A DNA stretch of 6,356 nt from a virus. The notes beneath the pieces were generated by a model. The model was given only the letters and a program-made list of their open reading frames with translations, did no database searches and was not told the origin of the DNA. This document shows, one piece after another, positions 1 to 6,356 of the stretch. The stretch covers positions 1 through 6,356 of the IMG/VR virus record IMGVR_UViG_3300045988_023818; one strand, written 5' to 3'. Made by a program: the position numbers and the translations under genes. Position 1 is the first letter of the stretch; each line of letters begins with the position of its first letter.

Positions 1-55
1 AAGGAAGGCAAATAGGTTCCAAGAGAAAGACTATGTGTCAAAGACAACGCTTGAA
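1..55. repeat. Terminal redundancy copy A, identical to 6302-6356. This is a circular-permutation or assembly overlap.
   Basis: Base-by-base comparison: aaggaaggcaaataggttccaagagaaagactatgtgtcaaagacaacgcttgaa occurs at 1-55 and at 6302-6356. The repeat runs to the window end, so its true length is not bounded. Confidence 0.95.
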
Positions 56-353
56 TCTGATTAATGTCCTGCATCTGAGTCAATACAGAAGGCGCAGATT
101 TCCAAAGAAGACGCAACGGCACAGCATAGAAATCAAAATACTCACGAAGACGAGTATAAGCAGACGTTTCAACCGGCTGAGTACGGGTAAAATACTCAAT
201 GTTAAACTTATACTTATCACCGGGCATCGAAATATCCCAGTAAACAGGAAGAAGCTCACCAACCTTTGCGGTAAACGCATTTTTACGTCCAATATCAAAA
301 CCAGAACGGTGAGGATGGTTCTGGAGATTGGACATTCCAGTGTAAGAAGCCAT
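1..353 (-). CDS. Major capsid protein (Microviridae VP1/F-like), N-terminal segment. It continues across the circular junction into 6301..4792.
   Basis: Minus-strand ATG at 353 (cat at 351-353). Hand translation gives MASYTGMSNLQNHPHRSGFDIGRKNAFTAKVGELLPVYWDISMPGDKYKFNIEYFTRTQPVETSAYTRLREYFDFYAVPLRLLWKSAPS..., which carries the conserved N-terminal signature of Microviridae capsid proteins (RSGFD..FTAK.GELLPV..PGD). The frame is continuous with ORF 4792..6348 when 6302-6356 is overlaid on 1-55. The total is 353 + 1510 = 1863 nt, or 620 aa plus stop. Confidence 0.93.
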   Translation of the reverse strand, partial: MASYTGMSNLQNHPHRSGFDIGRKNAFTAKVGELLPVYWDISMPGDKYKFNIEYFTRTQPVETSAYTRLREYFDFYAVPLRLLWKSAPSVLTQMQDINQIQALSLTHSLSLGTYLPS

Positions 354-362
354 AAAAAAAAA
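354..362 (-). promoter_or_regulatory. T9 homopolymer (A9 on the plus strand) directly abutting the VP1 start codon. Probably an unstructured U-rich translation leader.
   Basis: The minus strand reads CTATTTTTTTTTATG. No Shine-Dalgarno motif lies between the VP4 stop (383-385) and the VP1 ATG (353). Confidence 0.35.
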
Positions 363-379
363 TAGTTAAGGTTTAAGTA

Positions 380-395
380 TTATCAATCTTGATAA
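380..395. repeat. Inverted repeat TTATCAA-tc-TTGATAA overlapping the VP4 stop codon.
   Basis: ttatcaa (380-386) and ttgataa (389-395) are exact reverse complements separated by 2 nt. The VP4 TGA corresponds to tca at 383-385. Confidence 0.7.
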
Positions 396-2065
396 GAAAA
401 GATACCAGACAAGTCATTAAGCTTCTTGTGCTTGACCTTATCCCGACACTTCATAAGTGACGCGGCAGCCAAACGACGAACAAGAGGCAATTGCTTATAA
501 GGTGTTTCCTCATCAAGAACAGTTTTATCATAACGGAAGGAGTAGTTCCGAAGCTCCATATCAAGTAAATCTTTATCATCAGAATCTTCCAAAGTCTGAT
601 AAAAATCAACAAGACGGGAATAATCGTAACGACGCCAAAAATCTACTATCTTCTCGGAGAAGACTCGTAAAAATCTCTCTCGGCCGCTGGCATATTCTCC
701 AAGTCCGAAGACGGGTGTGCCATCCGATACGTACATTCGTAAACTTTTCGCAATTCCGAGAAAAAAGCGGTATAATCGGGCTATGCGATGAACACTTTCC
801 AAATCGACACCATCATACAAACGACATTCAGACAAAATGAGAATATCACTATGCGGGAGATTTTCCTTAGGTGAAAGAACATTTCTTTCGTCATTTCGTT
901 TTCCATAATTGTCTACATAATTTAAATACTGTTTACAAAAAGATAATATACTTTGTTTGGAAGAGTTATTCCAAGGGTCACAATCTAAACCACCGCATCC
1001 GCTATGAATGACTCGTAAGGGCGCTGTGAACGCAGCAGATAATAACTGGTAAACGTTCGATGGAGATTGACGAATAGCGTCTGAAAATCTGGGGAATACT
1101 CGAAGGAGATACGACCATGAAGGCTTAATCGTGCGAAAAAAGCCATCGCGCTCAATGCTGACTCCATTAAGGCACTTATCGGCAACTTCGTCAATTTCGG
1201 TAATTTGTACCGTTTGAGGAAAGAGATTTGACTCTGTAAATCCAATGGAATGGAAGGATTTAGGTCGCACCACTTTTGGCATCTGAGTATAAAAGTCGGG
1301 TAAAGCGACAAAACTATTAACATACGACGCAACATACGGAGCTGCGAATCCTCGCGACAATGATGCATCACAACGTCCGTAAGACCATGCCTTAGATACA
1401 TTTTCAAGAACAGTTTCCGAGAATCGTTCGGAATTGGAAAACAGTAACAGATGCCAATGCGGGCGGAAACTTGTAGGGCCGTATTCTGATACAGCGTAAT
1501 AACGTAATTTTTCATCTGGATAATAACTGCGTAAACGTTTTAAAAATAAGTCAAGATCACGATTACAAACATAAGGTATTCTATTTGGAACAGGATACTT
1601 AATTTTGCCAAGAATAGCCAACAAATCCTTCGGATACATAGGGTAGGAGAAACGAACCTCTGGATCTTTAAAAGTACGTTCAACCGTAGAATTCTTCAAA
1701 CGGAGAGAAGCGGAACGAGGAACGCTGCGAAAACCAAACAGATAACGATTAGAGTCACAAGCGTCCAAGTTATCAATATCGGGAACGCAGGATACATCCG
1801 CAACATCATCCGTACAATTTTCAACAATCTCAACCTGTAATGTAGGCAAAAAACAATTAGCATAAGTAAGAGTAACAAAATAGACAAAACGGAATTGAGA
1901 AGAATAAGAAGTAAGCAAGTTAGTCTGAATACCCGAACGACGGAGAATACAAGAAGGGCATTGACCACAAGAAACCAAAACGGGTTCATGGGTGTACTTA
2001 TTGATAACCGTACGAGGGTTCTGACAACGAGTCACTAACTTATTCTGCAATTCCTTGGTAATCAT
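383..2065 (-). CDS. Rolling-circle replication initiator (Microviridae VP4 / phiX174 A-like HUH endonuclease).
   Basis: 560-aa ORF. Motif I is FVTLTY. The HUH motif is RPHWHLLLF, with CAT TGG CAT verified at 1459..1451. The two-tyrosine motif is APYVASYVNS, with Y codons verified at 1336..1334 and 1324..1322, and it closely resembles my recollection of the phiX174 A catalytic-tyrosine motif (YVAKYV). An N-terminal CGQCPSC Cys cluster is typical of the family. The start overlaps the upstream gene's stop as ATGA (2065..2062). Confidence 0.93.
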   Translation of the reverse strand: MITKELQNKLVTRCQNPRTVINKYTHEPVLVSCGQCPSCILRRSGIQTNLLTSYSSQFRFVYFVTLTYANCFLPTLQVEIVENCTDDVADVSCVPDIDNLDACDSNRYLFGFRSVPRSASLRLKNSTVERTFKDPEVRFSYPMYPKDLLAILGKIKYPVPNRIPYVCNRDLDLFLKRLRSYYPDEKLRYYAVSEYGPTSFRPHWHLLLFSNSERFSETVLENVSKAWSYGRCDASLSRGFAAPYVASYVNSFVALPDFYTQMPKVVRPKSFHSIGFTESNLFPQTVQITEIDEVADKCLNGVSIERDGFFRTIKPSWSYLLRVFPRFSDAIRQSPSNVYQLLSAAFTAPLRVIHSGCGGLDCDPWNNSSKQSILSFCKQYLNYVDNYGKRNDERNVLSPKENLPHSDILILSECRLYDGVDLESVHRIARLYRFFLGIAKSLRMYVSDGTPVFGLGEYASGRERFLRVFSEKIVDFWRRYDYSRLVDFYQTLEDSDDKDLLDMELRNYSFRYDKTVLDEETPYKQLPLVRRLAAASLMKCRDKVKHKKLNDLSGIFSYQD

Positions 2066-2370
2066 TTTCTATCAGTAAAATCTAATTCCATAAGGCGAGG
2101 CTTACGGAGACGAGTAAAAGAAATATGAACAAAAGTGCGATACTTTATAAGCTGGTCGAATTCAAATCCGGAATCCTTGACTTTCAGAATAAAACTATCT
2201 AACGAAAAATCAAGAGGTTTCAAATCAATAGCATCTCCAGTCAAGTGTTGAGAGTTTTTAGAACCTCCGCATGCTTTATTTTCAGAATCAGTACGAAAGG
2301 CGGAAGTAACAGTAAACTTAACATTATTCCGAAGAAGCCATTCAACAAACTTCATTAACTTGGCATTCAT
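2062..2370 (-). CDS. Zn-dependent peptidase, M15 family (Peptidase_M15_3 / M15A-like cell-wall hydrolase). Candidate endolysin.
   Basis: 102-aa ORF. SAFRTDSENKACGGSKNSQHLTGDAIDL matches the S-x-[FY]-R...N...GG...S-x-H-x6-D metal-binding signature. H42 is CAC at 2247..2245 and D49 is GAT at 2226..2224. The distal FVHIS histidine, H82, is CAT at 2127..2125. No obvious signal peptide is present. The gene is coupled to VP4 through the ATGA overlap. Confidence 0.85.
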   Translation of the reverse strand: MNAKLMKFVEWLLRNNVKFTVTSAFRTDSENKACGGSKNSQHLTGDAIDLKPLDFSLDSFILKVKDSGFEFDQLIKYRTFVHISFTRLRKPRLMELDFTDRK

Positions 2371-2373
2371 GAC

Positions 2374-2463
2374 CTACGGAAACATCTGAGCAATAGACGT
2401 AAGAAGACTAACAGCAGCTGCAATAATTGCAGACCAGATCTTAGATTTAGTTTCACTTTTCAT
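2374..2463 (-). CDS. Possible 29-aa single-pass membrane peptide (MKSETKSKIWSAIIAAAVSLLTSIAQMFP). Candidate holin-like or lysis accessory peptide.
   Basis: ATG at 2463..2461 and TAG at 2376..2374, 3 nt upstream of the peptidase ATG (2370). It has a charged N-terminus followed by a hydrophobic segment of about 20 residues. By hand count, 16 of 29 codons end in T, like the bona fide phage genes. It fills what would otherwise be a 79-nt gap in a very compact genome. It is the C-terminal part of track ORF 2374..2562. Confidence 0.35.
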   Translation of the reverse strand: MKSETKSKIWSAIIAAAVSLLTSIAQMFP

Positions 2464-2647
2464 CAGAAATTGGCTTAAAAGTTGAACACTGGGAAAGAAT
2501 AATAACACAATCGGGATGAAGATTAGAAGAAACAAACTCAGAAACTTCATCAACTGAAACAAGAACGGTCTCGTTCTGATTAGGATTAACCTTTGACTGG
2601 ATAGAACACAAATAATACTTTTCCATAATCAAAATAAATTTTATCAT
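2453..2647 (-). CDS. Hypothetical protein, 64 aa, or 57 aa if translation starts at the ATG at 2626.
   Basis: It is the first ORF after the large intergenic region and has the same orientation as all other genes. By hand count, 37 of 64 codons end in T (GTT, TCT, AAT, CTT, GAT), matching VP1 codon usage. I recognise no family motif. Confidence 0.55.
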   Translation of the reverse strand: MIKFILIMEKYYLCSIQSKVNPNQNETVLVSVDEVSEFVSSNLHPDCVIILSQCSTFKPISDEK

Positions 2648-2657
2648 TAAACAAAGG

Positions 2658-2665
2658 CAAATATA
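2658..2665 (-). promoter_or_regulatory. Candidate Bacteroidota-type -7 promoter box (TATATTTG, which fits TAnnTTTG).
   Basis: Plus-strand caaatata at 2658-2665 reads TATATTTG on the minus strand. This sits just upstream of the first gene of the minus-strand gene block. I could not find a clean -33 TTTG partner. Confidence 0.3.
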
Positions 2666-2707
2666 TAGGGAAAGTTCAATATGTAGAGAATGTTAATATA
2701 AGAAATA

Positions 2708-2718
2708 ACATTTATAAA
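2708..2718. repeat. Direct repeat copy 1 of ACATTTATAAA.
   Basis: The same exact 11-mer occurs at 2748-2758, 40 bp away, in the AT-rich half of the intergenic region. Confidence 0.8.
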
Positions 2719-2747
2719 CGCAAAACAGTTGTAATTAACAAAATAAT

Positions 2748-2761
2748 ACATTTATAAATGT
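2748..2761. repeat. Perfect 14-bp palindrome ACATTTATAAATGT, which contains direct repeat copy 2.
   Basis: The sequence at 2748-2761 equals its own reverse complement. Its first 11 nt repeat 2708-2718. Confidence 0.85.
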
Positions 2762-2810
2762 GATAAATATGAAGGTCTGTGAGTTTACGTATATAAGACA
2801 AGAAAGGTAT

Positions 2811-2835
2811 GAAAGCGATGAGGTAAATCGCTTTC
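2811..2835. other. Hairpin with a 9-bp perfect stem, GAAAGCGAT / ATCGCTTTC, and a 7-nt loop.
   Basis: 2811-2819 is the exact reverse complement of 2827-2835. The loop is gaggtaa (2820-2826). Confidence 0.75.
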
Positions 2836-2843
2836 CCTTCGGG
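2835..2843. other. Mini-hairpin CCC-TTC-GGG, which reads CCC-GAA-GGG on the minus strand.
   Basis: cccttcggg lies at 2835-2843. It can extend through TTT/AAA (2832-2834 with 2845-2847). It overlaps the 3' arm of the 2811-2835 hairpin. Confidence 0.65.
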
Positions 2844-2855
2844 TAAACTCATGTA

Positions 2856-2864
2856 GGCTTCGCC
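2856..2864. other. Mini-hairpin GGC-TTC-GCC, which contains GCGAAGC on the minus strand.
   Basis: ggcttcgcc lies at 2856-2864, with a 3-bp stem and a 3-nt loop. Confidence 0.6.
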
Positions 2865-2898
2865 AATATCCAGAGACTTTAAAGTATTCTGATTTTTT

Positions 2899-2915
2899 TG
2901 CTCGCGGTGCTCGCG
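2899..2915. repeat. Tandem direct repeat TGCTCGCG-g-TGCTCGCG.
   Basis: The exact 8-mer occurs at 2899-2906 and 2908-2915. Its CGCG cores can also pair with each other (2903-2906 with 2912-2915). Confidence 0.75.
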
Positions 2916-2936
2916 CGTTCTTCACTGCGTTCATCA

Positions 2937-2977
2937 CTTAGACGATCCTTCTTCCTTCGGACTTGGATCGTTTTAAG
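2937..2977. other. Extended hairpin: CGATCC/GGATCG stem with flanking CTTA/TAAG pairing, capped by TCC-TTC-GGA.
   Basis: 2943-2948 is the exact reverse complement of 2965-2970. 2937-2940 pairs with 2974-2977. The apical tccttcgga lies at 2953-2961. Confidence 0.65.
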
Positions 2978-2994
2978 TAAATCGGCCAAATGGG

Positions 2995-3006
2995 GTCGCA
3001 AGCGAC
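2995..3006. other. Hairpin GTCG-CAAG-CGAC.
   Basis: A 4-bp stem (2995-2998 with 3003-3006) and a 4-nt loop, flanked by G4 runs. Confidence 0.5.
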
Positions 3007-3092
3007 AGGGGTGTTTAGGGGAGCAGTTACTTTTAAAAAGGAGAGGGAAGGAAGCTGCTATTCCGTTCGTTAAGGAAGGGAAGATGAACCCT

Positions 3093-3103
3093 ATGCTTCG
3101 CAT
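3093..3103. other. Mini-hairpin ATGC-TTC-GCAT, which contains GCGAAGC on the minus strand.
   Basis: atgcttcgcat lies at 3093-3103, with a 4-bp stem and a 3-nt loop. Confidence 0.6.
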
Positions 3104-3117
3104 CACATTTCAGTCAT

Positions 3118-3138
3118 ACTTCCCGAAATGTGGGAAGT
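3118..3138. other. Hairpin with a 7-bp perfect stem, ACTTCCC / GGGAAGT, and a 7-nt loop.
   Basis: 3118-3124 is the exact reverse complement of 3132-3138. The loop is gaaatgt. Confidence 0.75.
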
Positions 3139-3141
3139 GTA

Positions 3142-3162
3142 TAACCACGCTTCGCGCGGTTA
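3142..3162. other. Hairpin TAACC-a-CGC-TTC-GCG-c-GGTTA, with a GCGAAGC core on the minus strand.
   Basis: It has 8 Watson-Crick pairs. The single A/C mismatch (3147/3157) on the plus strand becomes a G-T (G-U) wobble on the minus strand, giving 9 contiguous pairs there. Confidence 0.7.
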
Positions 3163-3183
3163 CCAGAAATTACTCCAAACAGC

Positions 3184-3213
3184 AAAACCCGACGCGCATT
3201 ACTGCGAGCCGGG
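3184..3213 (-). terminator. Candidate rho-independent terminator downstream of VP2, ending the minus-strand gene block.
   Basis: The minus strand reads CCCGGCTCGC-AGTAAT-GCGCGTCGGG followed by TTTTGCTGTTTGG. The stem has 8 Watson-Crick pairs, 1 G-U and 1 mismatch. It begins 30 nt after the VP2 stop. The mismatch pattern pairs better on the minus strand than on the plus strand. Confidence 0.45.
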
Positions 3214-3242
3214 TAAAACAACAATGAAAAACAAACAATTAT

Positions 3243-4304
3243 CTACCAGGGTAAAAAATTACCTATAGTATTACCAATAGCCGTACCGTAAGAAACAGCT
3301 TTATCAGAATCGTAGTACTTGTATTTCTTACCTTCATTACGAGAGCGATACCAATCCTCAATACTACGAGAACGAGCACGCTCACGATTATATTTAGAGG
3401 CTTCAAGTTCATACTCTGCATTCGAATTATTAGCAGCATTAGATGAACGAATAAGAGAATCAGCAGTAGACTCAGCAACCTTATTGCTAATTCTCTGACC
3501 TTTAGCACGGGCATAAGTCAAGACCTCATCAGCAAGAACCTTCTTTGCCTGGTTATAATTCAAATGACCGTGAGACATCTGATTATAATACTCGGCAGCT
3601 TTCGTACTTAAGTCAGCCTGCTGTTGCTGATCAAGATACTTATTCAAGACTGTCTTTGCCTCTGCATCAAGCAAGGACATTGTACCTTGGGCTTGAAGTA
3701 AACGACCTGCAAAAGCCATATTATCAAGTTCCTGCATCTCTTTAGAATAACCAAGCTGGGCACGAGCCAAGCCAGTAGCCTTCAAATACTCACGGGTCTC
3801 TTTAGTCATTTTAGACCAATCGACATTAGAAAGAGCCTGCATAGCCTGGGCATCCGCAAGATTTTTCTGACCTTGTAACTGAGATACCTGGGCTTGCTGA
3901 ACTTGAGACTGAAAAACAGAGCCTATAGATTGAGAAATACCAGAATAATCAGCCTGGAAAGGTTGCATCTGAGCATTACCAGAAGAAGAAGCAGTAGCAC
4001 CGGTGCCAACGGAACCAGCGGCACCAGCAGAACCACCATTCATCATCAGATAAGGATTTAAACCAGCTTCCTCGAGACGTTGGCGTTGGGCAGAAGCAGT
4101 GTTATAGGCATTTTCCTTATTCCACATATCTTCCTGCCAGTTACGCTGCTGTATTGCCATACGCTCGTTAAACTGGTTATTCATCTGATTTATCTTATAA
4201 TTCATTTGGTTGGTTTCACGGACAGACTGGGCATTCTGAGCATTCTGCATCGCAGAAGATCCAGCACTGAACAATCCACCAACCAAAGAACCAAAAAGTC
4301 CCAT
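3243..4304 (-). CDS. Minor capsid / DNA pilot protein (Microviridae VP2 / H-like).
   Basis: 353-aa ORF. It has a Gly-rich N-terminus (MGLFGSLVGGLF), a Q/N-rich coiled region, the family-typical RQRLEEAGLNPYLMM motif (AGLNP), and a Gly/Ala/Ser-rich linker. Its start overlaps the upstream stop as TAATG (4306..4302). Confidence 0.87.
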   Translation of the reverse strand: MGLFGSLVGGLFSAGSSAMQNAQNAQSVRETNQMNYKINQMNNQFNERMAIQQRNWQEDMWNKENAYNTASAQRQRLEEAGLNPYLMMNGGSAGAAGSVGTGATASSSGNAQMQPFQADYSGISQSIGSVFQSQVQQAQVSQLQGQKNLADAQAMQALSNVDWSKMTKETREYLKATGLARAQLGYSKEMQELDNMAFAGRLLQAQGTMSLLDAEAKTVLNKYLDQQQQADLSTKAAEYYNQMSHGHLNYNQAKKVLADEVLTYARAKGQRISNKVAESTADSLIRSSNAANNSNAEYELEASKYNRERARSRSIEDWYRSRNEGKKYKYYDSDKAVSYGTAIGNTIGNFLPW

Positions 4305-4780
4305 TACTCAGAAGAGGCGGAAGAATCGACAGCAGCAACCTCTTCCACTTTTTGTTTAGCATTCTCGGCTTCAATTAAAGATCGAGCTTCACGTTCAAGA
4401 ACTTCAGCATGAGCAGCAAGTTCTTTCGACCAAGCAATAATCTCAGAAGGAGACTGGACATGTCGAGAACGAACTGTCGCCAAAAGGTCGTCATCAGACA
4501 TCTTATCCATAATTTGCTGAATCTGAGAAGAAGAATTACGGCTCTGGCCAAACTTAGAAGCAATAGACAAACCAGCACGAGAAGCCAAGTCCTTAGTATG
4601 GAGAATTAAACGAACATCAGACGTATAACGAACGGGACGAGTCTCATCCGTTTCGTCAATTTCAACACGGAGTTCTTCCGTAGAATCAAACTCGGGTGCA
4701 ACAGAAAAAGTATCGGGAGAAACATCAGGAACTAATAATTCCTGGTTTTCAACAGGGTTTAAAGTAGAAAATACAGCCAT
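4304..4780 (-). CDS. Acidic hypothetical protein, 158 aa. Its position and composition fit an internal scaffolding (VP3-like) protein.
   Basis: The track ORF begins at a TTG (4789). The first ATG is at 4780 (cat at 4778-4780), 11 nt after the VP1 stop, giving MAVFSTLNPVENQ.... The protein is D/E-rich, shares the codon bias of its neighbours, and sits between the capsid and pilot genes. The functional call rests on synteny only. Confidence 0.75.
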   Translation of the reverse strand: MAVFSTLNPVENQELLVPDVSPDTFSVAPEFDSTEELRVEIDETDETRPVRYTSDVRLILHTKDLASRAGLSIASKFGQSRNSSSQIQQIMDKMSDDDLLATVRSRHVQSPSEIIAWSKELAAHAEVLEREARSLIEAENAKQKVEEVAAVDSSASSE

Positions 4781-4791
4781 AACAAACAATA

Positions 4792-6356
4792 TTAATAAGG
4801 TACACCATCACGAGACAAGTTACGAGCAACGTAACAACCAATATAAGAGTTAACCAACAACTGGTCTGAATCCCAGGTAGAATCGGCCTTAACGCCGAAA
4901 ATAGGGTCAAGTACAGAAGGATTAACCTTAAAAAACTTATAATTCAAAACAACACGAGTATTCTTATCAACATCACCTTCTTCATATCCATGAACAAACC
5001 ATCCGGAAAGAAGAGACTCAGTAACAGGAGAAACCCAAGATTTTTGAGTAGTAGTAAACGCACCATTGACAACGTCAAGCTTGGTTTTCCAGTTGAAATA
5101 ACGAGGATTATAACCAGCATTAAACAGGTTAACGATAGAAGCCTTAGGAGAATTGAATATCTGAGTCATAGGGAGAGCCTCCATACCAATGTTGTCAAAT
5201 TCCGGAATAGGAAGAGACTCAGCATCAGTTACAAGTAATTGGCCATCTTGTCCAGTAATCGTATAATCAAGCAAAGGAACGGCATGATAAATACACATAA
5301 CAACACAATGTTCATTAGTTGTATAAGTAAATGAACCATTACCAGCACCAACACCCTTACCAGCAATTATAGCGGAATCACCAGCACCAGCAAGATTGCT
5401 GTTTACAACCTCACTGATGTCAAGATTGCGAGAAATACCACCAATATAGGTACACATATTGGAAAGAGCTTGAGGCAAGTTCACACCAAAATGTTTACGA
5501 ATCTGCTCACGATAATCAGAATCACCGGACTGAGAGATCTCTTTCCAACGTTGAAGGGCCTCGGCTTGACGAAGAGCGAGAACAGTAAATTGACCCTGCA
5601 AACGAGAAAGGTCAACTTGAAGAGAAGAACCAGCAGCAATAATATTAGAAGTAGAAGCATCCTTAGCCGCGAAAGATATCGGAGTAAGAGGAGCATTATA
5701 AGAACCAGTAGTAATAACTTCAGAAGAAGCATCACCACTTGGACTCTTTAAAAATACAGAAGAAGGGATAGAACCCTCAGTATTTGAAATATTAATCACA
5801 GCAACATCGCCAAACTGAGAATTCGGAAGAATACCCATCAGCATATCCTTATTCCAATTACAATATCTGAGGTCGAACATTGTAGGGGATTTCCAATAAG
5901 AAGAAGAGGCATCGGGAGTAACCTCAATAAAATTAGGAGAAACACCGGAATAATAATCAACATTATAAGAAGACGGGTTCGAATTTTCCCACTGAGACCA
6001 GCGGAAAAAATCTTGATAAATCTTCTGGTAAGCCAATAAAGGAAAAACATTTACATAATTGTTCTGAATATATAGTTGAGTATAATCAGAAGATTTTCCG
6101 GAATTTTTCAAAGAAGTAGACCACCAACGATTATCAGAAGAGGGGGCGGTATCAATTATATTACCATATCCAAGATAGCTTAACAATTTATAAGACAAAT
6201 CAGAACGGGAAAAACCAAAAGGATTTCTATAAGAAGAAGAACCCGGAGAAGGAGAATTCCCATTCAGTCGGAAAAGAATAGTAGACAACTGAGAAAGATT
6301 CAAGGAAGGCAAATAGGTTCCAAGAGAAAGACTATGTGTCAAAGACAACGCTTGAA
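4792..6356 (-). CDS. Major capsid protein (VP1/F-like), remaining C-terminal part. The frame is open to the window edge, and 6302-6356 duplicates 1-55.
   Basis: The frame is open from 4792 (TAA at 4792-4794) to the window end. It contains the family-typical stretch FTVLALRQAEALQRWKE and strongly T-ending codons. The track's M at 6348 is an internal Met, not the true start. Confidence 0.93.
   Translation of the reverse strand, partial: QALSLTHSLSLGTYLPSLNLSQLSTILFRLNGNSPSPGSSSYRNPFGFSRSDLSYKLLSYLGYGNIIDTAPSSDNRWWSTSLKNSGKSSDYTQLYIQNNYVNVFPLLAYQKIYQDFFRWSQWENSNPSSYNVDYYSGVSPNFIEVTPDASSSYWKSPTMFDLRYCNWNKDMLMGILPNSQFGDVAVINISNTEGSIPSSVFLKSPSGDASSEVITTGSYNAPLTPISFAAKDASTSNIIAAGSSLQVDLSRLQGQFTVLALRQAEALQRWKEISQSGDSDYREQIRKHFGVNLPQALSNMCTYIGGISRNLDISEVVNSNLAGAGDSAIIAGKGVGAGNGSFTYTTNEHCVVMCIYHAVPLLDYTITGQDGQLLVTDAESLPIPEFDNIGMEALPMTQIFNSPKASIVNLFNAGYNPRYFNWKTKLDVVNGAFTTTQKSWVSPVTESLLSGWFVHGYEEGDVDKNTRVVLNYKFFKVNPSVLDPIFGVKADSTWDSDQLLVNSYIGCYVARNLSRDGVPY
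6302..6356. repeat. Terminal redundancy copy B, identical to 1-55.
   Basis: Same exact 55-nt match. It implies a unit genome length of 6301 nt. Confidence 0.95.

Follow-up and report, generated by a model that had tools for sequence, protein, structure and literature searches.

A conserved hairpin module of gut microviruses as a candidate complementary-strand origin on the T-rich strand

The 6,356-nucleotide (nt) stretch analysed here (IMG/VR virus record IMGVR_UViG_3300045988_023818, positions 1 to 6,356; hereafter the window) represents a microvirus genome that is complete or nearly so, and the subject of this report is a structured, non-coding module at positions 2775-3183. Every recognisable gene lies on the minus strand of the window. 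Gene calls place the major capsid gene VP1 at 6348-4792, the scaffold gene at 4789-4304, the pilot gene at 4304-3243, two small open reading frames (ORFs) at 2647-2374, an M15 peptidase gene at 2370-2062 and the Rep gene at 2065-383; no primase or polymerase gene is among them. The sole large gene-free gap, 595 nt in length (2648-3242), houses the module. The nearest GenBank records are the faecal microviruses bajarodmic virus 1134 and Dulem viruses 257 and 236, with 81-84% identity.

The original prediction, made from the letters of the window, had singled out a GC-enriched block of ~370 nt starting at position 2811, with at least eight local stem-loops and no convincing gene. Its G+C content indeed amounts to 0.455-0.50 over 2801-3200, as compared to 0.22-0.31 just upstream and ~0.40 genome-wide. 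Stops or frameshifts disrupt all three crossing ORFs in module-bearing relatives (L025, L043, L107, L141, L168 and L035), and none of these ORFs matched a Pfam or PHROG family. In Dulem virus 257 (L003; GenBank PP511330), a coding sequence annotated as ‘hypothetical protein’ falls wholly within the module (1511-1714); it is probably a spurious gene call, because the frames are broken in relatives. Just as the prediction had recognised no known RNA family, an Rfam search (E ≤ 1) returned no relevant match in the window or in seven related genomes, and ARAGORN detected no tRNA or tmRNA in the window. The cmscan match to the C. elegans snoRNA ceN106 at 509-584 (minus), inside Rep, is a chance match (21.9 bits against a gathering threshold of 60; E 0.59).

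Folded as RNA, positions 2780-3240 outperformed dinucleotide shuffles on both strands (z = -3.65 for plus and -3.85 for minus; 0/100 shuffles as good), and the same was true of 2775-3183 folded as DNA (z = -2.91 and -3.61, respectively; no shuffle as good). We count at least nine local hairpins, at 2811-2835, 2835-2843, 2856-2864, 2941-2971, 2995-3006, 3021-3059, 3093-3103, 3104-3132 and 3143-3161. The boundaries had to be revised: the structured unit begins at ~2775 rather than 2811, and what was described as a single module, while structured and non-coding throughout, really consists of three separable sub-modules.

Elements resembling a terminator of the gene block and a promoter flank the module, as had been predicted. 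A terminator-like G+C hairpin, ACCCGGCTCGCAGTAATGCGCGTCGGGT followed by TTTTGCTGTTTGG, occupies 3187..3214 (minus) and folds on that strand into a hairpin plus U-run; a simple terminator scan left it unflagged owing to an internal mismatch, and relatives keep it with changes in the stem. It closes the VP1-scaffold-pilot unit directly 5' of the module on the gene strand. On the other side, an AT-rich spacer (2648..2774, minus; G+C 0.22-0.31) leads to the next ORF and contains the -7 box TATATTTG (TAnnTTTG) at 2665-2658 (minus), 10 nt before the ATG at 2647. Alignment of the spacer showed CAAATATAT to be kept in all relatives. Calling this box a putative promoter relies on what we take to be the Bacteroides promoter consensus. 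On the gene strand of the window's lineage, the module is therefore preceded by a terminator-like hairpin and followed by the next promoter-like box. In a second lineage, termed lineage B below (e.g., L125), TACGTTTG follows 3' of the module with TTTG 20 nt upstream, just before the next ORF. The likeness of the boxes in both lineages to the Bacteroidota -7/-33 consensus suggests a Bacteroidota host for each. Past the box of the window, the small overlapping ORFs upstream of the M15 peptidase gene (2374-2647, minus) encode 64 and 62 amino acids (aa) and belong to no PHROG or Pfam family; the very hydrophobic 62-aa product may partner the peptidase in the membrane or in lysis.

Sequence alignments show the module to be a composite. 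Its parts are a 5' block at 2775-2865, an extension at 2866-3007 that is optional, and a ~175-nt core (3008-3183), with all structures described here on the minus strand. The 3' half of the core in plus numbering (3093-3176) is common to every carrier, including the distant Dulem 262-type genomes and marmot microviruses in which no more than part of it is present. Hairpin M1 (GGAG-TAAT-TTCT, 3165..3176), derived from an alignment of 100 sequences, is weak and missing from lineage B. Two of its pairs vary, one being G-C 47 / G·T 46 and the other G-C 70 / G·T 16, the 3' arm carrying only C or T opposite G. Hairpin Pa (AACCGCGC-GAA-GCGTGGTT, 3143..3161), an 8-bp stem with one G·T pair and an exact GCGAAGC cap, is the best-conserved piece and occurs in every module-bearing lineage; its wobble pair is G·T in 94 sequences, A-T in 5 and G-C in 1, and the adjacent pair covaries (C-G 96 / T-A 4). 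The tract GGTTATACAC between Pa and Pb (3137..3146) has (nearly) invariant columns in alignment A2. Its first bases, GGTT, form the 3' end of the Pa stem and the remainder is unpaired; the CTG that follows, 12 nt 3' of Pa, is conserved at 100, 97 and 97%.

Hairpin Pb (CACATTTCGGGAAG...CTGAAATGTG, 3104..3132; consensus CTG-A-ATTTCGG / CTGAAAT-CAG) combines a compensatory T-A 66 / C-G 33 change with a fixed G·T and a C-G 94 / T·G 6 pair, and many relatives bear an extra apical hairpin, GAC-YYY-GTC, within it. An H-type pseudoknot at ~3104-3137, compatible with the window, was discarded after inspection found it lost in relatives. Cap and motif scans identified the mini-hairpin ATGC-GAA-GCAT at 3093..3103, again with an exact GCGAAGC; it is the positional equivalent of AGCC-G(N)NA-GGCT (Pc) in the shorter form of the module, whose stem covaries (G-C 96 / A-T 3). 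The 5' half of the long-form core (3008..3092), comprising the hairpin AGCAG.../...CTGCT at 3021-3059 and a CCGTTCGTTAAGG segment, is unlike its short-form counterpart (GGGTATAGCAGCGACGG...TACGCGTTGCAA...).

As judged from alignments, the extension (2866..3007) is restricted to the long form. It contains a long hairpin capped TCC-GAA-GGA (2941-2971), GTCG-CTTG-CGAC at 2995-3006 and two copies of GCTCGCG at 2900-2915. Its carriers are the window, L001, L021, L025, L043, L107, L141 and L168, together with L035, L134 and L165 of lineage B; ~100 short-form genomes are without it. The 5' block (2775..2865) is specific to the window's lineage, being present in 65 IMG/VR contigs and missing from lineage B and the Dulem 262-type genomes. 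It adopts a branched fold of an outer stem (2780-2788/2843-2851), a 9-bp hairpin (2811-2835) and the mini-hairpin CCC-GAA-GGG (2835-2843), next to a separate mini-hairpin, GGC-GAA-GCC, with an exact GCGAAGC (2856-2864). Covariation is evident here, too, in the 9-bp hairpin (G-C 25 / T-A 19) and in GGC/GCC (A-T 17 / G-C 26; T-A 7 / C-G 38), and in short-form genomes the distance from the 5' block to Pa is a constant 233-244 nt. The block further includes a conserved unpaired CTTGTCT followed by a variable AT-rich hexamer (2795-2812, minus). By eye, this is faintly like the CTTGATA nick sites of phiX174/pC194-type Rep proteins and could be a candidate Rep nick site.

The relatives whose existence the prediction had left to be checked are numerous. 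A 25-nt pattern derived from Pa matched 47 IMG/VR contigs and a looser Pa pattern 77 metagenome contigs, mostly human-gut circles of ~6.2 kb; conservation of the module extends to over 100 contigs of gut microviruses. They include lineage B, in which the gene order is capsid-scaffold-pilot-Rep-[module]-ORF-peptidase and Rep measures 355 aa; here, L035, L134 and L165 carry the long form, and L125, L154, L171, L175, L190 and L191 the short form. Positions 2865-3174 of the window and 3959-4266 of L035 share 90.3% identity over 310 nt, the only nucleotide match between both genomes, whose proteins are far more diverged (Rep, 21% identity over 86 aa; capsid, 28% over 96 aa). Insertion sites vary as well: after the pilot gene, after Rep, or between Rep and pilot. 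By these sequence comparisons, the module is a horizontally exchanged cassette, with unusually clear signs of the exchange. A prophage or cellular origin was rejected, as the 185,579 species genomes of bacteria and archaea that were scanned yielded only chance matches, in G+C-rich genomes; the scan used one exact Pa pattern, with which divergent copies could be missed.

Several carriers depart from the standard layout. L206 (IMGVR_UViG_3300029126_000060) keeps the 5' block, after which a truncated long-form core directly abuts the pilot gene, the greater part of the core having been deleted together with Pa, and L205 (IMGVR_UViG_3300022758_000054) has tandem duplications of module segments. 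Judged from the sequences of these two, the module region is a rearrangement hotspot. Three metagenome contigs contain two module copies each: L109 and L127 give the impression of a circular genome assembled beyond unit length, and L159, with inverted copies, is probably chimeric. In Microvirus mar45 (L186, 4542-4714) and in mar40, Rep as annotated extends at its 3' end into the 5' part of the core, so that either the Rep annotation is too long or module and coding sequence overlap.

Covariation, which the prediction had proposed to look for, bears out the hairpins. In 100 distinct cores of the short form, pairing is kept in 98.8% of cells, and both sides have changed in nine pairs. None of 500 shuffles reached the observed values, and slid controls paired at 27-45%. 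The module hairpins are hence under selection, and the block is a conserved, non-coding module with covarying hairpins. Naive covariation scans were too noisy for use, and RNAalifold consensus folds of the entire module were unstable.

Which strand folds can be read from the same alignments. On the minus strand of the window, Pa, Pb, Pc and Pe together comprise 290 G·T and 4 A·C cells, and the consensus fold is more stable on the minus than on the plus strand under RNA (-32.6 vs -16.2) and DNA (-13.8 vs -8.1) parameters. Hairpin caps point the same way. On the hairpin strand, they are GNA or GNNA closed by C-G, with varying middle bases and loop length: the Pa loop is GNA in 93/100 sequences (GTA, GAA, GCA and GGA were seen) and the Pc loop G(N)NA in 97/100, mostly GTTA or GTCA (seen: GTTA, GTCA, GAA, GTA and GCCA), so that most Pc tetraloops are not GNRA. 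Over the whole window, c(GNA)g hairpins with stems of at least 3 bp number six on the minus strand, five of them within the module, and zero on the plus strand. Five c(GAA)g hairpins lie on the minus strand of the module, three being exact GCGAAGC, and these three copies—all within 2857-3155—are the only ones in the window. We rejected the notion that the plus-strand CTTCG sequences form RNA UUCG tetraloops, since the register places triloops or U(N)NC there and G(N)NA on the other strand. G·T excess, fold energy, cap type and mini-hairpin count all point to the window minus strand as the one that folds.

The mini-hairpins GCGNAGC and GCGNNAGC are extraordinarily stable as DNA (melting temperature ~76 °C), not as RNA (39 °C; PMC13037366), and bind poorly to SSB, the single-strand binding protein, according to a review by the motif's discoverers (PMC13037366). 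One such mini-hairpin, GCGAAAGC, is located at the primase start of the complementary-strand origin of phage G4; the origins of St-1 and alpha3 carry GCGTTAGC; and RSF1010 ssiA (CCGAAGG) and the single-strand promoters of phage N4 contain mini-hairpins of this kind (PMC13037366). With the G4 genome as a control, our search found cggcGAAAgccg within the annotated primer site, and the module minus strand contains mini-hairpins of the same GCGNAGC/GCGNNAGC type. A non-homologous, G+C-rich intergenic block follows Rep in Sigmofec virus UA08Rod_4510 (L183; ~4700-4900 and ~5350-5400). It displays five c(GNA)g/c(GNNA)g hairpins on the T-rich, non-coding strand (cgccGAAggcg, ggcGCAgcc, cgcGTAgcg, ttttccgcGTAgcggaaaa and gaatttcGGTAgaaattc), which suggests an analogous module of independent origin.

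Relative to the genes, the module occurs in both orientations: of the unique contigs, 99 have their genes antisense to its plus strand and four have them in the sense direction, with lineage B having the module plus strand run with the genes and the window's lineage antisense to them. Relative to base composition, its orientation is uniform, as the hairpin (minus) strand is the T-rich strand in 103/103 unique contigs. At fourfold sites, the coding strand of the window's lineage contains T.635, C.163, A.125 and G.077, and that of lineage B A.63, G.157, T.118 and C.096, exact complements of one another. An inverted module would speak against a function on the single strand, were it not for this mirror-image composition. 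The viral strands of G4 (T.47, C.27, A.16, G.09), Chp2 and SpV4 are T-rich at fourfold sites, in keeping with a bias towards C-to-T change in single-stranded phage DNA (PMC4032129). From composition only, we infer that the T-rich strand is the packaged strand.

Lineage B belongs to a large clade of microviruses from gut and faeces with a Rep of ~355-400 aa and A at 0.56-0.72 of fourfold sites on the coding strand (genomes L035, L125, L154, L175, L183-L186, L190-L195 and L210-L269). Its composition exactly complements that of the window's lineage and of the G4 viral strand. The coding strand is A-rich in 67/67 fetched clade genomes and in GenBank members, with or without the module. Because the whole clade is skewed irrespective of its presence, the module follows the strand skew and does not cause it. 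Clustered mini-hairpins occur in this clade only in module carriers and in Sigmofec virus UA08Rod_4510.

Taken together, we favour, at about even odds, the interpretation that the module is a single-strand initiation signal, that is, a complementary-strand (minus-strand) origin read by host machinery. It would be a cis-acting DNA module active in the single-stranded, packaged form of the genome. Upon entry, the circular single strand would be coated by host SSB, while the G+C-rich hairpins with c(GNA)g/c(GNNA)g caps, as poor SSB binders, would remain folded. The folded module would then present fixed stems and unpaired tracts—GGTTATACAC, a CTG and, in the short form, TTGCAACGCGTAAGCAAT—at which host primase or RNA polymerase could begin the complementary strand; that priming starts in the module is something we infer by analogy. 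Being read by host factors rather than by Rep would make the module portable between phages with unrelated Reps, swappable among very different microviruses that share a host, and it would always be inserted such that the same strand enters the virion. Of the two possibilities raised in the original prediction, an element of the single-stranded origin type or a novel structured RNA, the first is thus favoured because of the lack of an Rfam match, the DNA-type caps, the G·T pairs on the T-rich strand, the orientation tied to that strand and the position between transcription units; origin function as such is argued by analogy.

A number of observations weigh against this interpretation. C-to-T pressure on the packaged strand could itself partly yield G·T from G-C pairs. 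Folding of the 177-nt core alone is modest (minus-strand z from +0.1 to -3.8, varying by homologue), and much of the conservation lies in unpaired sequence, long tracts of which are almost invariant. Conservation and loop chemistry are stronger evidence than folding energy, and given the modest z and the near-invariant tracts, sequence-specific recognition would seem to matter as much as hairpin stability. The long-range helices TATAGTA/TGCTATA, GCTT/AAGC, GAGAG/CTCTT and GACG/CGTC were unsupported or contradicted by the alignment and therefore dropped. A blastn-short comparison of the module with the G4 genome gave chance matches of 9-16 nt only, none in the origin, and no module homologue was found in 72,556 plasmids, so that homology to plasmid single-strand origins (sso) was likewise rejected. 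Behind the orientation argument stand only some 3-5 independent insertion events. In phiMH2K, a gokushovirus in culture, the fourfold sites of the coding strand, as annotated, are rich in A (A.467, C.23, T.235, G.068), with a G/C pattern other than that of the A-rich clade. Equating the T-rich with the packaged strand fits Chp2, SpV4 and G4 and fails for phiMH2K, so we rejected it as a safe rule. Most genomes of that clade are without the module, and G+C-rich mini-hairpins have no strand bias in it (37 vs 30); if the module is an origin, these members must use something else. Finally, L206 is a natural relative lacking most of the core. Minus-origin deletions in M13 and in rolling-circle plasmids are viable, and the core loss in L206 and the duplications in L205 would fit a minus-strand origin that is helpful but dispensable. 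What we propose on priming, binding and replication is argued from likeness and sequence, and could as well turn out wrong as right.

The alternatives differ in what they make of these data. It is unlikely, in our estimation, that the module, or the invariant 41-nt part around Pa, is the viral-strand (double-strand) origin, nicked by Rep and setting which strand is packaged. The orientation on the T-rich strand would follow by definition; GGAGTAAC..AACCGCGC-NNN-GCGTGGTTATACACC is near-invariant in all lineages; CTTGTCT with the AT-rich motif in the 5' block faintly resembles CTTGATA by eye; and HUH nucleases often act beside hairpins. Yet the module is shared by lineages whose Reps are 21% identical and absent from phages whose Reps are 50-62% identical to that of L035, and the Pa loop is variable. 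The skew of the A-rich clade is the same with or without the module, which therefore does not set polarity. In L206, the greater part of the core is gone and Pa with it, a loss that would be lethal for a double-strand origin and thus argues against a Rep nick site in the core.

Quite unlikely, too, is a new family of structured non-coding RNA, of which the module would be the gene or a processed part and which might serve, for instance, host manipulation or counter-defence. Its defined size and constant 233-244 nt spacing, conserved hairpins with compensatory changes, horizontal movement like that of an accessory gene and an RNA fold better than shuffles are all compatible with such an RNA. 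However, Rfam offers no match, and neither strand looks the part: the G·T strand has triloop caps and GNNA caps whose third position is a pyrimidine, atypical of stable RNA (PMC13037366), and the other strand has U(N)NC caps and A·C mismatches, likewise atypical. Scan and inspection revealed no conserved promoter or terminator of its own, a gene-strand transcript would hold opposite module strands in the two lineages, and the genome scan recovered no cellular copy.

The strand-specific evidence behind a priming signal applies equally to a non-priming role on the packaged strand—nucleation of condensation or packaging, a protective cap that resists SSB and nucleases, or a decoy for host defence systems triggered by single-stranded DNA. 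The apparent dispensability of the core and the patchy occurrence in the A-rich clade would accord with such roles. Nothing specific in the sequence indicates them, however, and packaging in Microviridae is coupled to Rep-driven synthesis; we know of no precedent for a Microviridae packaging signal. We would be surprised if this proved to be the function. Least probable by a clear step is a selfish, non-autonomous mobile element, e.g., one bounded by hairpins that a host HUH transposase mobilises in single-stranded form: its presence in unrelated lineages at differing genomic positions, its variable forms with local duplications and deletions, and the strand-specific insertion of IS200/IS605 elements would suit it, but each genome has a single copy, which invariably occupies the main intergenic region and is subject to strong purifying selection, we noticed neither target duplications nor terminal repeats, and searches gave only chance matches in the 185,579 bacterial and archaeal species genomes (one exact pattern) and none in plasmids.

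Should the module be a host-read, portable complementary-strand origin on the encapsidated strand, then its inversion in the L035, L125 and mar45 lineages, taken with the exactly complementary synonymous-site composition of the A-rich clade, would mean that this clade packages the strand antisense to its genes. We regard this combined proposal as tentative, with a probability somewhat short of even. If true, the clade (at least 67 genomes) would be the first negative-sense Microviridae. The module could serve as a sequence marker for the strand that functions as single-stranded DNA; marker and synonymous-site skew together suggest that a large clade may have reversed polarity, in which case the definition of the family and the annotation and orientation of its genomes would change. 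Beyond polarity, the module is a candidate entry point for studying how gut and environmental microviruses turn the incoming single strand into duplex, and a candidate replication signal traded between microviruses with almost no protein similarity. Its boundaries are sharp, and two alleles, a deletion and an inversion of it exist in nature. To our knowledge, complementary-strand origins have been characterised experimentally only in the E. coli phages phiX174 and G4 and the G4-like St-1, alpha3 and phiK, and we know of none in gut and environmental microviruses, which outnumber these by far.

The closest parallels are the primase-dependent origins (oric) from which G4, St-1, alpha3 and phiK, all Bullavirinae, start the complementary strand. 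Like the module, they are non-coding, intergenic hairpin clusters in a microvirus, situated on the viral strand in the known cases. Both have mini-hairpins of the GCGNAGC or GCGNNAGC type, the same GTTA and GAA loops and then an unpaired CTG; the conserved CTG of the module, 12 nt 3' of Pa, is only suggestive of a DnaG-type primer start. G4-type origins also differ in type between related phages, another module-like trait. The module is three times larger, at ~175-410 nt against ~135 nt, and unlike G4-type oric it has been exchanged between lineages with nearly unrelated Rep and capsid proteins. Its hosts are probably Bacteroidota.

The primosome assembly site of phiX174 (PriA or n' site) is likewise a structured intergenic element of single-stranded DNA that starts the complementary strand, the role for which the module is a candidate; that site is a single ~55-nt hairpin read by PriA, whereas the module is a hairpin cluster. 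The minus origin of the Ff phages (M13/f1/fd) and the plasmid origins ssoA, ssoU, ssoT and ssoW share with the module their orientation dependence, a size of 150-300 nt, a high degree of structure and exchange as cassettes. They employ host RNA polymerase or other host factors and are dispensable but beneficial, properties that the module may have in common with them. A promoter mimic of the Ff/ssoA type was looked for: no sigma-70-type site was detected by a scan of 2775-3183, and inspection of the module revealed no TAnnTTTG box. A CS-6-like TAGCGT is not conserved, occurring only where the Pa loop is GTA (56/100).

RSF1010 ssiA/ssiB and the hairpin promoters of the N4 virion RNA polymerase resemble the module in their short G+C stems with GAA or GGA caps; they act as entry points for a primase or polymerase on single-stranded DNA (PMC13037366), as the module may do. 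They are single hairpins of 20-40 nt serving enzymes encoded by the element itself, whereas this phage encodes neither a primase nor a polymerase. In the absence of similarity to G4 oric, a promoter mimic, a plasmid homologue and a conserved CS-6, membership of a known origin family is not supported by the comparison with G4 oric and plasmids: the module would work like these origins without being one of them. Most likely, it represents a new variant, without homology to the known ones, of the single-strand replication initiation signal.

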